From Nanobdellota archaeon (GTDB taxonomy: Archaea; Nanobdellota; Nanobdellia; CSSed11-243R1), in the NCBI GenBank assembly GCA_021163365.1, contig JAGGWW010000012.1:1-53966 (forward strand): a stretch of 53,966 nucleotides of DNA. Direction: 5' to 3'. Each line of letters begins with the position of its first letter. Position 1 is the first letter of the stretch. Under the pieces are notes generated by a model. That model was not told where the DNA came from and made no database searches. It saw only the letters and a list, made by a program, of their open reading frames with translations. The position numbers were made by a program, and so were the translations under genes. Shown one piece after another: positions 1,571-44,815 of this stretch.

Positions 1571-2070
1571 AAAAAATAATTAAAAAAGCTGTTGTTTACG
1601 CACGAAAGCGCAGAAAAGGAGTTGCATTTATAGTATTCTTCTCATTTTTAATTTCATTTATATTATCTCGCTCATTTGTAATTTTAACTAATGATAAATA
1701 TAGCTTAATGATAAAGGGGTATGAAATACATCACTTAGTTCTTGGCATAATCTTACTTTCAATTGGAGGCGCAATTGGAATAAGTTACAGAAATGGTTTT
1801 ATTAGAACAGCTTCAGTCATCTACGGTGCAGGGCTTGGATTAATAGCTGATGAATTCGGGCTTTTAATTACCTGGGGTGATTATTGGAGTAGATTTGCAT
1901 ATGACTTTGCCTTAATAATTACATTAATCTTTTTGAATATACTATTTTTCTCAAACTTTTGGAGATTTGTAGGAAGGAAAACAATTCTCCCAATGGTTGA
2001 AAGGATTGAAAAAAGATGGGATGCGTTTGTAAAAAAAGCAGAAGAAGAATACAAACATTGGAAACATTAG
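1567..2070 (+). CDS. hypothetical membrane protein
   Basis: 167-aa ORF with several hydrophobic helices, translationally coupled to the upstream ORF. Confidence 0.5.
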   Translation: MKKIIKKAVVYARKRRKGVAFIVFFSFLISFILSRSFVILTNDKYSLMIKGYEIHHLVLGIILLSIGGAIGISYRNGFIRTASVIYGAGLGLIADEFGLLITWGDYWSRFAYDFALIITLIFLNILFFSNFWRFVGRKTILPMVERIEKRWDAFVKKAEEEYKHWKH

Positions 2071-13903: not shown

Positions 13904-14189
13904 GATAGCAAAGATAAGAATAGAAAGAGCAATTAAATTTAGCGAAAGATTTGATGAGATGTCTGATAAAGAATTTAAATGGTTGATAAATTACATTGAC
14001 AACATTTTAAAGTTGCTTCCAAACTCAAAAGATAAGTTATCTATTCAAGCTTATGTGTATAAACTTAAAAAAATGGAATTTAAAAAATACGGTGCAATAT
14101 TCAAAGGGATTTCTCCTTATGGTGGTGTAATAATAAGAAAAAAGGATTTAAACAACTTGGTTTGGTGGCTAAATTCATTGCTTTATTAA
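13890..14189 (+). CDS. hypothetical protein
   Basis: 99-aa ORF overlapping the upstream ORF by 14 nt. Confidence 0.4.
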   Translation: MENLEIAKIRIERAIKFSERFDEMSDKEFKWLINYIDNILKLLPNSKDKLSIQAYVYKLKKMEFKKYGAIFKGISPYGGVIIRKKDLNNLVWWLNSLLY

Positions 14190-15290
14190 AGTTTTTGCTA
14201 TTTCTTTTGCACCATTGCCTTTAAATTTATGCTTCTTTAGGTTTTCCAAATACTCATCTTGTTTGTCAAAAAATGATGATAAAGATGTGTAAACGCTTTT
14301 TTTACTAATTCTTGAATCTAAAACACAAGCTTCACCATATCCTTCTTTCTTAACAAGAAAGGCATTAACCATTTGTTCAACATGATTTCTTATAGGAACA
14401 GTTAAAACAGGTTTTCTAAAAACAACACATTCAGATATAGTTGAATGTCCAGCTGGTGATATAACACCATCAGAAGCTTTTATCAATTCTAATGAGTTTT
14501 TAACAAAAGGAAATATTATCATGTTCTTTGATTTTTTAACCTTATTAACAATGTAATTACTTGAAATAACAAAAAACTTATCATCAAACTCTGGCAAAAC
14601 CTTTTCAAGTATTTTAAAAAAGTGTTTTTCAATCTCAGCACCACCAATGCTAACATAATAAAAACTTTTAACTCCAAGTTTTTCCTTTATTTTTTTTGAT
14701 TGTAAAACTTCATTGGGTTTCTTCCTTACAATTAAATCTACATATTTTATTTTTTCAGAATAAACAACTTTTTTCTCAAAAGATGGAACAAAAAATAAAT
14801 TTCCTCTTGAAAGCATGAACTTAATAAGTTTTTTTAATAAAATGTGTTGAAGAACAATGTTCTTTGTCTTAAGCTTTGGCGGTAAAATATGGTAATGATT
14901 CAATGTTGTTATTAAATTTGTAAGAGTGTAAATTGGAATCCCTCTGTTTGAAGCATAGAAAAATGAGTTTGGCTCGGAGTCTGAAAAAACAATGTCTGGC
15001 TTAAAATCCGTTGCCATCTTTCTAAACTTAATATAATCCTTTCTTATCTTCGTTGGATTTTTAAACAACTCTAATATTTGAGCAAAAACATCAAAAGAAT
15101 ATTCTCTACCTTTATACTCATAGCCACCGAAGTCATAACAAGGAATTTTCATTAACTTAAAATATCTTTGAGCTGCGCCATAAGAAAATATTTTAACTCT
15201 TGCTTTACTTTTTAACTCATTGTAAATTGCATGACTTCTTGTAGCGTGCCCATATCCAATTCCAACAACAGACATAAGTATCTTTTTCAT
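14175..15290 (-). CDS. GT28/MurG-like glycosyltransferase (MJ1255-like)
   Basis: N-terminal GIGYGHATRS glycine-rich loop and a C-terminal SPAGHSTISE nucleotide-sugar binding region. The start is taken at MKKILMSVVG (15290), one nt after the PIG-L stop. The longer track ORF (to 15341) would overlap the PIG-L gene. Confidence 0.6.
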   Translation of the reverse strand: MKKILMSVVGIGYGHATRSHAIYNELKSKARVKIFSYGAAQRYFKLMKIPCYDFGGYEYKGREYSFDVFAQILELFKNPTKIRKDYIKFRKMATDFKPDIVFSDSEPNSFFYASNRGIPIYTLTNLITTLNHYHILPPKLKTKNIVLQHILLKKLIKFMLSRGNLFFVPSFEKKVVYSEKIKYVDLIVRKKPNEVLQSKKIKEKLGVKSFYYVSIGGAEIEKHFFKILEKVLPEFDDKFFVISSNYIVNKVKKSKNMIIFPFVKNSLELIKASDGVISPAGHSTISECVVFRKPVLTVPIRNHVEQMVNAFLVKKEGYGEACVLDSRISKKSVYTSLSSFFDKQDEYLENLKKHKFKGNGAKEIAKTLIKQ

Positions 15291-15291
15291 T

Positions 15292-15933
15292 TTATTCACC
15301 ATAAAAGTACTCAGCATATTTAAAGCCATGCCTTCTTCCATAAATTATTCCCTTTAAAAGAATTAAAGGCTCAAGCAAGTAAATTGATAAAATCTGTGAT
15401 TTAAAGCATGAAAGGGCTTTCATCTTTAGTGGAAATTCTTTAGAAACATCAATTATAACAGTTGGCTCTTTTTTCCCAAAGTCAAATAAATTTATTTGAA
15501 ACTTAAACACTTCTGGCTTATAATCCAACTTAGAAATTATTTCATTCATAATCTTATTTACAGCAATATGATGTGGATGAGCATCTTTAGCAGAATGATA
15601 AAATATCTTTGATGGCTTATATTTTTTAATAATATTAAGCAACTTTTCTCGTTTTTCAAAATCAAATTCATTTTCTATGTCTTCAATTATACCAAGAAAA
15701 ATAGTTTCTGAAACACCAAGAATTGAGCATGCTTTTTTTGACTCCAATATTCTTTTCCTTCTTAATTCTTCTTCGCTCATAAACGGAGGCCAAGATAACA
15801 AAGAACCAGCTTCTCCAGAACCATAAGAAAAGATTACAACAATCACCTTCTCAGTCTTAGCTAACTTTGCAATAGTTGCTCCACACCCAATTACTTCGTC
15901 ATCAGCATGTGCTGCACAAACTAAAACTGTCAT
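15292..15933 (-). CDS. PIG-L/LmbE-family N-acetylglucosaminyl deacetylase
   Basis: VLVCAAHADDEVIGCGATI signature and HPHH metal-binding motif. Confidence 0.75.
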   Translation of the reverse strand: MTVLVCAAHADDEVIGCGATIAKLAKTEKVIVVIFSYGSGEAGSLLSWPPFMSEEELRRKRILESKKACSILGVSETIFLGIIEDIENEFDFEKREKLLNIIKKYKPSKIFYHSAKDAHPHHIAVNKIMNEIISKLDYKPEVFKFQINLFDFGKKEPTVIIDVSKEFPLKMKALSCFKSQILSIYLLEPLILLKGIIYGRRHGFKYAEYFYGE

Positions 15934-20364: not shown

Positions 20365-20650
20365 GAAGTTTTCTAAAGCGGGCGGGCGCGCCAGCTCTCG
20401 AGAAACCGCACCAGTGGCAGTCCCCAGACCTTTTCTCCACCCCGTATCCTAAGAGCACACGCTATTCTGCTTAGGGCTGCTCCATCCCTGGCCTGACCCG
20501 GTTCACAGAATAACGCATCCCTTAGGGCGAGGCTTCTTAGATACGGCCTGGGCTTACCAAAAATGCGGTAACCCTCAAGCTGGCTTCGGCCCCCCATAAG
20601 GACGGTTTGGGGTTAACAGGCCACGCCCAGCGGCCCACCTAGCCCGCCCA
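20365..20650 (-). ncRNA. signal recognition particle RNA (archaeal 7S/SRP RNA)
   Basis: GC-rich island in an AT-rich genome. The minus strand starts GGGCGGGCUAGGUGGGCCG and ends GCGCGCCCGCCCGCUUU, so the termini pair. Alu-domain motifs CCUGUUAACC and GGGGGGCCGAAGCC are present, as is the helix 8 motif GGGUCAGGCCAGGGAUGGAGCAGCC. About 285 nt. Confidence 0.85.
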
Positions 20651-20678: not shown

Positions 20679-20744
20679 GGTTTCATAAAAGAACTATTTC
20701 AAAACTTCCTTTTGTAAGCAGTATAGAAAAAGCCCCGGGTGGGA

Positions 20745-20794
20745 CTTTCACAACCCTTTCTTTCCCAAGGCTTTCTTCGGGAAGAAAGGGTTGG
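20745..20794 (-). other. T-loop 59/60 intron of tRNA-Thr (50 nt)
   Basis: BHB drawn by eye: T stem GUGGG/CCCAC, 4-bp helix UUCA/UGAA, bulges AA|C and AG|U, and inner helix CAACCCUUUCUU../..AAGAAAGGGUUG. Confidence 0.75.
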
Positions 20795-20816
20795 TTTGAA
20801 CCCACGACCTTCGCCT

Positions 20817-20832
20817 CCTTGGATTTAAAGTT
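20817..20832 (-). other. canonical 37/38 intron of tRNA-Thr (16 nt)
   Basis: BHB drawn by eye: anticodon stem UCGCC/GGCGA, 4-bp helix UUGG/CCAA, and 3-nt bulges UA|A and GG|A. Confidence 0.75.
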
Positions 20833-20852
20833 TACCAAGGCGACGCTCTACC

Positions 20853-20901
20853 GATTTCTCCAACCTTTCTTTGGTTGAGCTTTCTTTCCCAAAGAAAGGT
20901 C
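20853..20901 (-). other. D-loop insertion/intron of tRNA-Thr (49 nt; boundary ambiguous by 1 nt)
   Basis: Removal restores the canonical D arm GCUC-AGCUGGUA-GAGC. The insert contains a perfect 12-bp hairpin ACCUUUCUUUGG/CCAAAGAAAGGU. I could not draw a clean BHB. Confidence 0.55.
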
Positions 20902-20940
20902 AGCTGAGCCACCGGGGCTTAAGAAGTCCAATAACCTTTT

Positions 20941-35371: not shown

Positions 35372-35503
35372 TAGCCCCGCGCGGACTTCCGAGCACCCAC
35401 GGATTTTCTTTCCGTGCACGCTTTCTTTTTTAAGAAAGGGTGCGTTCGAACCGCGGTCACAGGGTCCAAAGCCCTGTATGCTTGGCCACTACACCACGGG
35501 GCT
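35372..35503 (-). tRNA. tRNA-Gln (anticodon UUG) with a 59-nt intron at T-loop position 59/60
   Basis: The minus strand reads AGCCCCG UG GUGU AGUGGCCAA GCAU A CAGGG CUUUGGA CCCUG UGAC CGCGG UUCGAA[59 nt]U CCGCG CGGGGCU A. An oligo-U tract follows the 3' end. Confidence 0.85.
35386..35444 (-). other. T-loop 59/60 intron of tRNA-Gln (59 nt)
   Basis: BHB drawn by eye: T stem CGCGG/CCGCG, 4-bp helix UUCG/CGGA, bulges AA|C and AG|U, and inner helix GCACCC/GGGUGC with one extra U. Two internal hairpins: CUUUCUU-AAAAA-AGAAAG and CACGGA-AAGAAAA-UCCGUG. Confidence 0.75.
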
Positions 35504-44620: not shown

Positions 44621-44815
44621 TTTACCTTTCCTTTTTCCGTAAACGCTTTTGAGCGTGCGGAAAAGGGTTTGATGCTTCAGCGAGCGCATTCGAGGCAGCA
44701 CCTTCCTCTTCCCCCAAGGAAGGGCTGCCTTATCATGCTCTCATCCTAGAGAGCACCCCTTTGCCCTATGACCCGGCTGCAGACTACTTCTAACTGAAAA
44801 GCCGGGTAGGGCAAA
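44621..44815. ncRNA. GC-rich multi-hairpin element between convergent genes (candidate structured RNA; strand and function unknown)
   Basis: At least four stable hairpins in a row: CCUUUUUCCG..ACGCU-UUUG-AGCGU..CGGAAAAGG; GGCAGC-A-CCUUCC-loop-GGAAGG-GCUGCC; UGCUCUC-AUCCUA-GAGAGCA; UGCCCUA-UGA-CCCGGCU-loop-AGCCGGG-UAGGGCA. GC content is clearly above the flanks. Confidence 0.35.

Follow-up and report, generated by a model that had tools for sequence, protein, structure and literature searches.

We examined a 53,966-nucleotide (nt) contig of a Nanobdellota archaeon (JAGGWW010000012.1, assembly GCA_021163365.1), hereafter the window, which carries two split tRNA genes on its minus strand, one for tRNA-Thr(GGU) and one for tRNA-Gln(UUG) (Table 1). 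Three of their introns, two at the non-canonical position 59/60 and one in a D-loop, contain the same small module, a hairpin with a pyrimidine (Y) and a purine (R) tract that is followed by a third, purine tract. The window has a GC content of 31%, and two of the GC-rich islands on its minus strand are these tRNA genes. Neither ARAGORN nor Rfam called a tRNA in the raw window, in which the sole Rfam match was an archaeal signal recognition particle (SRP) RNA. After in silico removal of the introns, including a 16-nt intron at 37/38 of tRNA-Thr, ARAGORN recovered a 73-nt tRNA-Thr(ggt) and a 73-nt tRNA-Gln(ttg), and deletion of the D-loop insert was required for the tRNA-Thr call. The intron coordinates and the 59/60 placement in the initial annotation proved exact on re-reading and are borne out by these calls. 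The 37/38 intron lacks the module, thus the introns of the tRNA-Thr gene are of two kinds.

Table 1. Split tRNA genes, introns and related elements of the window (Y, pyrimidine tract; R, purine tract of the hairpin; third, downstream purine tract).
Feature	Position	Strand	Description
tRNA-Thr(GGU) gene	20731-20918	-	188 nt, three introns; read from the sequence, called by ARAGORN after splicing
Thr intron 59/60	20745-20794	-	50 nt, between A59 and U60; reads CCAACCCUUUCUUCCCGAAGAAAGCCUUGGGAAAGAAAGGGUUGUGAAAG
Thr 59/60 tracts	Y 20782-20789; R 20771-20777; third 20758-20765	-	Y CCUUUCUU; R AAGAAAG; third GGAAAGAA
Thr canonical intron 37/38	20817-20832	-	16 nt, AACUUUAAAUCCAAGG; boundary uncertain by 1 nt
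Thr D-loop intron	20853-20901	-	49 nt; contains CCUUUCUUU-GGG-AAAGAAAGC
Thr D-loop tracts	R 20880-20887; third 20864-20873	-	Y CCUUUCUUU; R AAAGAAAG; third C-AAAGAAA-GG
tRNA-Gln(UUG) gene	35372-35503	-	132 nt, one intron; ARAGORN tRNA-Gln(ttg) after splicing
Gln intron 59/60	35386-35444	-	59 nt; reads CGCACCCUUUCUUAAAAAAGAAAGCGUGCACGGAAAGAAAAUCCGUGGGUGCUCGGAAG
Gln 59/60 tracts	Y 35432-35439; R 35421-35427; third 35406-35413	-	lower stem GCAC/GUGC; third GGAAAGAA
Diverged fourth module copy	44634-44670	-	covariance model R1 21.3 bits, E = 3.4e-4; AAAC-C-CUUUU...AAAAG-C-GUUU-AC-GGAAAAAGG
GC-rich hairpin-rich segment	44671-44816	-	~150 nt, ~54% GC, intergenic, between convergent open reading frames

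Minimum free energy (MFE) folds of the precursors kept the acceptor stem and presented the 59/60 splice sites in bulge-helix-bulge (BHB) structures. In tRNA-Thr this is a strict hBHBh' motif, comprising the T-stem, a 4-bp helix UUCA:UGAA, 3-nt bulges AA|C and AG|U, and an inner helix. The Gln site adopts a near-identical BHB-like fold, UUCG(A):(U)CGGA, with a 5' bulge of 2-3 nt. In these MFE folds the 4-bp helix is formed by exon bases U54-A57 and a YGRR sequence of the intron, and around 28 T-loop introns from other genomes share the same hBHBh' architecture. The splice sites of the Thr D-loop intron face each other in a continuous helix beside a 9-nt bulge, with no strict BHB in the MFE fold. 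On these models, the 59/60 sites are predicted to be cleaved by EndA. Enzymes of broad specificity, of the (alpha-beta)2 and epsilon2 types, are described as cutting non-canonical BHB introns in the accounts of ARMAN and N. equitans (PMC3239211, PMC4033280). The introns of that kind resemble those of the window in numbering several per tRNA, in lying at positions beyond 37/38 and in having relaxed motifs, as in the D-loop intron.

The 5' portions of the 59/60 introns, initially annotated as nearly identical, have an exact 22-mer in common, ACCCTTTCTTNNNNAAGAAAGC, whose two exact occurrences both lie in these introns (0.01 expected). The composite hairpin CTTTCTTN{3,6}AAGAAAG (CTTTCTT-N3-6-AAGAAAG) is present four times in the window against 0.01 expected, and in 2000 shuffles the scores of the pairwise local alignments of the three introns were equalled 0, 10 and 0 times. 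A covariance model, R1, was built on a gap-free alignment (A2) of 29 copies, all taken from other genomes. It matched the Gln intron (53.0 bits, E = 1.3e-13, 35403-35445), the Thr 59/60 intron (36.9 bits, E = 8e-9, 20755-20795) and the Thr D-loop intron (22.3 bits, E = 1.7e-4, 20864-20905), which confirms the suggestion that the D-loop insert reuses the module. Over the 54 kb, no comparable score was obtained beyond the three introns and one free-standing, diverged copy (Table 1).

Chance or convergent likeness of low-complexity purine/pyrimidine hairpins might be expected in so AT-rich a genome, and CCTTTCTT by itself is only mildly enriched (15 occurrences against 5.6 expected, a number reached by 1 of 100 shuffles). 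This explanation is refuted by the composite patterns (2-4 observed against 0.01 expected), by intron alignment scores that lie outside the shuffles, by the E-values of 1e-13 to 2e-4 from a model built on foreign copies, and by the third tract, which accompanies the same hairpin in 8 of the 15 archaeal and none of the 103 bacterial matches listed. The sequence comparisons support homology of the Thr D-loop, Thr 59/60 and Gln 59/60 introns, by shared descent from a repeat family and not by independent origin. The identical bulges, previously offered as a further sign of kinship, are present in the folds as AA|C and AG|U but are weak evidence for homology, because AA corresponds to the universal A58 and A59 and the bulges follow from the T-loop and the BHB rule. 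The roughly 28 foreign T-loop introns likewise have mostly AA|N on the 5' side and AG|U (or AA|U, AU|U) on the 3' side.

A covarying hairpin with a mirrored third tract

The module is a unit of ~40 nt. From 5' to 3' it consists of a lower stem of 3-4 bp, a C.C mismatch, CUUUCUU, a loop of 3-6 nt, AAGAAAG, the return strand of the lower stem, a linker of 1-3 nt and the third tract, with the archaeal consensus (N4)C-CTTTCTT-N3-6-AAGAAAG-C(N4)N1-3-GGAAAGAA. The CCUUUCUU/AAGAAAGG hairpin, which the initial annotation took for the mobile or recognition module, is indeed shared, but the conserved unit is larger and includes the lower stem, the mismatch and the third purine tract. Both mismatch positions are C in 96 of 114 copies, and the lower stem pairs in 69-87% of these copies, against 36-59% after shuffling. 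A MAFFT alignment of all 113 copies (A1) mis-registered 4-nt loops; in the gap-free subset A2, 96% of the lower-stem cells pair and 45 cells carry double changes, against 16.6 in shuffled alignments (0 of 500). Compensatory changes (GC, CG, AU, UA) occur in all four lower pairs, and pairing collapses when the partners are slid. The upper stem and the third tract are conserved in sequence, and the lower stem alone is free to vary. Within 59/60 introns the module always occupies the 5' end, where its first bases also build the inner helix of the BHB. In the Thr introns, the MFE fold offers the Y tract a full Watson-Crick partner in the third tract.

Several known elements were weighed on their sequence motifs alone and set aside. 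Tandem GA pairs of a K-turn/L7Ae site, the RUGAUGA/CUGA boxes of a C/D guide and the ACA of an H/ACA guide are absent or unconserved across the copies. The same is true of the defining motifs of CRISPR repeats, integron attC sites (GTTRRRY), ORB boxes and IS200/IS605 ends with a TTAC cleavage site. An Rfam search of 13 module-bearing loci gave scores for tRNA and rRNA only, and no module family.

The third tract covaries with the purine strand of the hairpin in mirror order and not in direct order. Hairpins with the purine strands AAGAAAAG, AAGAAAAAG, AAAGAAG and AAAAGAAAG are followed by the third tracts (G/C)AAAAGAA, GAAAAAGAA, GAAGAAA and GAAAGAAAA, respectively. This relation was tested in three scans of genomes and metagenomes with search patterns blind to the third tract, two of the patterns being for variant hairpins. 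Here and below, scan counts refer to the matches listed and are lower bounds, and the sources are mostly metagenome-assembled genomes (MAGs), named by their record titles. GAAAGAA follows the canonical AAGAAAG hairpin in 8 of 15 archaeal and 0 of 103 bacterial matches listed (Fisher p = 9e-9). Downstream of the AAGAAAAG hairpin, AAAAGAA is the commonest 7-mer (67 of 113 matches listed) and direct-repeat cores number 0-5; downstream of the AAGAAAAAG hairpin, AAAAAGAA is found in 38 of 93 matches listed, with 0-4 direct cores. The length of the A-run (3, 4 or 5) in the hairpin predicts that in the third tract, with counts of 10/1/0, 1/68/0 and 1/1/37 (chi-square 199, p = 8e-42). Among non-canonical hairpins picked without the third tract there were 16 perfect mirrors, against 1.5 expected and a permutation maximum of 6, and 5 direct copies.

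A mirror relation is not explained by alternative Watson-Crick pairing or by a dimeric protein, since neither would select mirrors. Pairing between the Y tract and the third tract fits the Thr introns and some introns of the Nanoarchaeota genome AUK188; it was rejected as a general rule, as the mirror sequence and not the direct one is followed. Instead, the order Y-R-R(mirror) is the code of a class II intrastrand purine-motif triplex, in which G*G-C and A*A-T triplets are made by a third strand antiparallel to the purine strand. The stems of the module (7-9 nt) may be set beside the minimum of 6-8 matched triplets required of triplex stems. Its first loop has 3-6 nt and its second 6-12 nt, including the paired lower-stem strand, which is over the ITxF limit (1-6 nt) although most copies are inside the Hoyne limit (0-10 nt). 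An asymmetry between U.G and C.A mismatches was also considered as a discriminator of RNA from DNA and proved uninformative, the apparent mismatches being register artefacts.

Occurrence across archaea

The hairpin by itself, CCCTTTCTTNNNNAAGAAAGC, was first used to scan a set with a single genome for each species. Most matches were bacterial and due to chance. The archaeal matches lay in tRNA genes, with an extra conserved GGAAAGAA a few bases downstream. A second pattern, CCTTTCTTN{3,5}AAGAAAGN{5,11}GGAAAGAA, returned nearly exclusively archaeal MAGs among the matches listed, several of them with multiple copies. The hosts comprise Nanoarchaeota/Nanoarchaeia, Aenigmatarchaeota, Iainarchaeum, Woesearchaeota, Micrarchaeota, Altiarchaeota, Thermoplasmata/DHVE2 and Methanophagales (ANME-1).

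Around 45% of the canonical copies (50 of 111) have tRNA-like 5' flanks. At least 23 of 110 copies directly follow the UUCRA of a T-loop, as judged by the flank motif, six lie immediately 3' of a tRNA 3' end, and others sit in D-loops, in anticodon loops (the 37/38 region) and in variable arms. All positions other than the T-loop were read by eye; in silico splicing with ARAGORN on all copies was too noisy. In AUK188, one copy (locus L118, 5444-5481, plus strand) lies ~110 nt upstream of the 16S rRNA 5' end and is part of the pre-rRNA leader. Members of the family thus occur in many other tRNAs across archaeal MAGs, and many copies are free-standing between genes. The initial annotation had read homologous introns as a sign of transposition or duplication. 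Homology, different positions (D-loop and 59/60) and different tRNAs all hold, but the family is specific neither to introns nor to one genome.

Among the intergenic copies, the upstream gene lies on the same or opposite strand in 28/18, 27/21 and 13/14 cases, without strong bias, and convergent spacers outnumber divergent ones (32 against 15). A preference for convergent spacers with no strand bias is as expected of tolerated DNA repeats. Some copies begin 1-5 nt past a stop codon, one lies between convergent protein genes (L076), and tandem arrays are found at L193, L199 and L237. In tRNA genes the orientation is constant, single-module introns and tRNA trailers always reading Y-R-R in the RNA sense. 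Longer T-loop introns at L166 and L171 hold a second module, tail-to-tail and in the opposite orientation, and those at L131, L205 and L235 apparently do so too, as read by eye.

Origin and spread of the introns

Close relatives of the Gln intron are the 59/60 introns of tRNA-Ala(GGC) (L134) and tRNA-Leu(UAA) (L118) in AUK188, which are near-identical to each other and 92% identical to the Gln intron over all 59 nt. The same two AUK188 tRNAs carry more module-bearing introns at 37/38, and the tRNA-Leu has one in the D-loop as well. Proteins of the window have few matches at the sampled module-bearing loci, with 29-66% identity, and the sole AUK188 match reaches 32-36%. Another genome, archaeon SO_2017_SWC_5, contains at least seven identical 36-nt cores (L143, L144, L153, L159, L169, L199). 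From sequence alone, these cores and the AUK188 introns may be read as recent intragenomic spread.

We propose that the introns are copies of a structure-prone, non-autonomous archaeal DNA repeat that colonised tRNA genes, where BHB splicing makes insertions harmless, and we put the probability of this reading at roughly 0.55. The repeat would multiply at the DNA level inside genomes, across DPANN and several euryarchaeal lineages, and would persist in intergenic spacers and in the flanks of RNA genes. Inside tRNA genes it would survive where the surrounding sequence can pair with exon bases into a BHB, so that the tRNA splicing endonuclease and a ligase would excise it from the transcript and the insertion would carry no cost. 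Movement would have run from the repeat family into the tRNA genes, and the Thr and Gln introns would be alike because both were gained from this family in DNA, through insertion, duplication or gene conversion. A triplex, if formed, would most plausibly arise in single-stranded DNA during replication or transcription, and might promote the spread of the repeat.

A number of observations weigh against this proposal. No direct repeats flank the window copies, as judged by eye, and no transposase was found, though no search aimed at transposases was made. Empty-site polymorphism was not found either: two JGI and two ENA metagenomes contain pieces of the same contig, all 99.8-100% identical, and the relatives share less than 50% protein identity. 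The nearest of these, an unclassified archaeon MAG and a Candidatus Nanoarchaeia MAG, have proteins 44-48% identical to those of the window; for the Na/Ca exchanger that adjoins the tRNA the best relatives are at 47-48%, with none closer by a synteny-based search. Intron identity of 92% between lineages whose proteins share 29-66% could reflect purifying selection and function instead of recent spread, and the constant orientation in tRNA introns and trailers hints at selection on the transcript or on transcription. In many copies the third tract opens with C where the mirror rule predicts G, and a linker of 1-3 nt after the lower stem leaves tight geometry for the third strand to return to the upper stem. 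RNA strands reportedly do not support purine-motif triplexes (Semerad and Maher 1994, cited in PMC4666352), in which case the structure would have to act in DNA, and no triplexes of the bacterial TMECO repeats were detected in vivo (PMC4666352). All locus sets are samples of MAGs.

The main rival to the DNA repeat is a function at the RNA level, which we consider possible but doubtful. The module would then be a functional element kept in RNA segments that are discarded, such as tRNA introns, trailers, rRNA leaders and 3' untranslated regions. It could bind a conserved archaeal protein that recognises or processes RNA, act as a clamp that folds the precursor and offers the BHB to the endonuclease, or govern how stable the excised (circularised) intron is; its mirror tract could belong to an RNA tertiary contact or a protein recognition surface. 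The single sense orientation of T-loop introns and trailers would fit this, as would the 92% conservation of a full-length intron across very distant hosts, the fixed sequence of upper stem and third tract above a freely varying lower stem, the constant place at the 5' end of 59/60 introns with its contribution to the inner BHB helix, and the full Watson-Crick pairing of third tract and Y tract in the MFE folds of the Thr introns. However, intergenic copies do not clearly favour one strand with respect to genes, composite introns hold a second, oppositely oriented module, and no Rfam family matched. Alternative Watson-Crick pairing would select the reverse of the mirror relation, and mirror repeats are not read by dimeric proteins. 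An RNA triplex of the purine motif is also disfavoured by the report, as cited in PMC4666352, that such triplexes do not form, and the genome-specific bursts of near-identical copies resemble proliferation rather than function.

Exchange between tRNA genes alone, by intron transposition or gene conversion of the Thermoproteales type through the D- and T-loop flanks, would account for one intron subfamily at 59/60 of Gln, Ala and Leu tRNAs and for the strong excess of tRNA-associated copies (50 of 111). The near-universal GTTCRAA/TCC flanks of the 59/60 site could guide recombination, and a precedent is described in the summaries of Thermoproteales work (PMC4033280, PMC4090602). The free-standing copies would be debris, either relics of degraded tRNA genes or re-integrated excised introns. 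Against this, the large families of ANME-1/Methanophagales, Methanosarcinales and Bathyarchaeia are found for the most part in spacers of protein genes, where no tRNA remnants were seen, the tandem units of L199, whose upper stems differ while lower stem and tail stay the same, are unlike intron relics, and free-standing copies are missing the 3' half of the BHB; we therefore regard exchange restricted to tRNA genes as improbable. A hairpin-type terminator or 3'-end element of AT-rich archaea, tolerated in introns, is less probable still, and very unlikely in our judgement. Copies placed 1-5 nt past stop codons or right after tRNA 3' ends, the favoured convergent spacers and the T-rich tracts agree with such a role. 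Yet the module sits inside tRNA genes that need read-through transcription, its T runs are broken (TTTCTT), the orientation of upstream genes is unbiased, a mirrored third tract plays no part in termination, and the bacterial PIT elements of the same class have no terminator activity (PMC4666352).

The sharing of introns among tRNAs is a new case of a known phenomenon. In Thermoproteales, intron families common to different tRNAs are read as transposition in later accounts (PMC4033280, PMC4090602), and in the reviews it is thought to occur at the DNA level, by a mechanism described there as unknown (PMC4090602). As in the window, closely similar, BHB-dependent introns occupy different tRNAs and positions, and gain is placed at the DNA level. 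The present family differs in its DPANN-like host, with further members in Thermoplasmata and ANME-1, and, as far as later summaries of the Thermoproteales introns allow the comparison, in having a defined, structured module that also occurs outside tRNA genes and across phylum-level distances.

In its layout of Y tract, loop, R tract, loop and mirror R tract, the module resembles the bacterial BoxC, PIT and TMECO repeats (Hoyne et al. 2000; Holder et al. 2015, PMC4666352). These class II intrastrand triplex motifs fold into stable DNA triplexes in vitro and are frequently found in forward/reverse pairs. They mark variable or unstable loci, are linked to local genome instability and have no terminator or promoter activity (PMC4666352). 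They are, like the archaeal module, short, multi-copy and mostly intergenic, with pairs in opposite orientation and no known associated gene. TMECO is G/C-rich, with the consensus CCCTCNCCC N3-6 GGGNGAGGG N3 GGGNGAGGG and a second loop of 3 nt, whereas the archaeal module is A/T-rich, its second loop contains the return strand of an additional covarying stem along with a C.C mismatch, and it resides in tRNA introns and the flanks of RNA genes. On sequence grounds, the module falls into the same class as TMECO and BoxC but into a different family, the TMECO consensus being absent. REP/BIME and MITE elements are likewise short palindromes that are repeated many times in a genome, fall into genome-specific subfamilies, favour 3' intergenic spacers and form tandem or inverted clusters. 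The module differs from REP and MITE elements in that no RAYT or IS transposase was identified (no transposase search was made), nor terminal inverted repeats beyond the hairpin or a target-site duplication, and in its mirror tract, which is a feature of neither.

Triple helices of the U*A-U type in RNA (ENE/MALAT1-like, telomerase, SAM-II) also combine a hairpin with a third strand that follows a code base by base. Read on its antisense strand, the module would have the order mirror(Y)-Y-R, a pyrimidine-motif foldback. By contrast, the strand transcribed in tRNA genes has two purine tracts and one pyrimidine tract, that is, the purine motif, which to our knowledge has not been described in natural RNAs. 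A full-text literature search, judged on titles and abstracts, returned no paper that ties intrastrand triplex motifs to archaeal tRNA introns. What appears to be undescribed is that the shared unit is a defined, covarying, triplex-coded repeat, that this repeat is common to many DPANN and euryarchaeal lineages, and that it is present both within and beyond tRNA genes.

The ~40-nt unit of sequence and structure gives a concrete handle on the spread of archaeal tRNA introns and makes the question experimentally approachable. Intrastrand triplex repeats have so far been characterised in bacteria alone, and the module adds archaea and an A/T-rich form to their range. As ARAGORN was blind to both genes, the tRNA complements of DPANN archaea are likely undercounted where such introns are common. 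More speculatively, a pan-archaeal family of triplex elements, with Y-R-R mirror repeats on a hinged stem, may be the vehicle of tRNA intron gain, their non-B structure in single-stranded DNA at heavily transcribed tRNA genes driving insertion or recombination, or the transcript of the module may form the first natural purine-motif RNA triplex; we hold this only tentatively. If true, the vehicle would give non-B DNA a direct part in how archaeal tRNA introns arose and spread.

Variants and other hairpin elements

The fourth module copy of the window lies outside any recognised tRNA, directly 3' of a GC-rich, RNA-like segment (Table 1), and resembles by eye the tRNA-Leu D-loop intron of L118. 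The GC-rich segment forms strong hairpins, for example GCCCUACCCGGC...GCCGGGUCAUAGGGC and GGCAGCCCUUCC...GGAAGGUGCUGCC. It is not recognisable as a tRNA, and Rfam gave no match between 44560 and 44900. We take it for a probable RNA gene that has escaped annotation, flanked on its 3' side by the module copy. The SRP (7S) RNA (20380-20649, minus strand, 143 bits) lies ~80 nt downstream of tRNA-Thr on the same strand. A perfect CTTTCTT-AAC-AAGAAAG hairpin at 14345-14361, inside a glycosyltransferase-like open reading frame (14175-15341, minus strand), has neither lower stem nor third tract and is probably due to chance.

Several variants were seen in other genomes. A very uniform form, acAAA-C-CTTTTCTT-aga-AAGAAAAG-C-TTT-AC-CAAAAGAA-C, is often present in several copies per MAG (L245-L360, e.g. 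L246, L248, L253, L262, L302), in hosts recorded as ANME-1/Methanophagales, Methanosarcinales, Bathyarchaeia, Nitrosotalea and one 'Halobacteria' MAG. After the canonical form, L076 and L146 continue with a conserved TTTTTCTTTTAGCACA tail. The array at L199 (~1720-1960, minus strand) consists of hairpins with differing upper stems, each bracketed by AAGCC...GCCUUGGGAAA, and the constant part in that genome is the lower stem, the mismatch and a GGGAAA tail. At L017 (2794-3080, plus strand), a tRNA 5' fragment, GCCTTGGTAGCTTAGT, is split by a module, and ~80 nt further on an intact tRNA-Asn starts with the same GCCTTGGTAGCTCAGT; the arrangement may represent a duplicated or split tRNA 5' half.

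In the viral contigs of IMG/VR, archaeal copies were not found among the matches listed, which showed only an unrelated-looking, GC-rich bacterial analogue. This repeat, ccCCTTTCTTCYCGAAGAAAGGGGACGGAAAGAAgg, has the Y-R-R layout and occurs in the Clostridiales MAG UMGS260 (L125, L130, L155, L157 and others) and in six IMG/VR contigs (L239-L244). In these bacterial and phage-borne copies it lies within a longer conserved hairpin-rich element, and one genome carries many copies.

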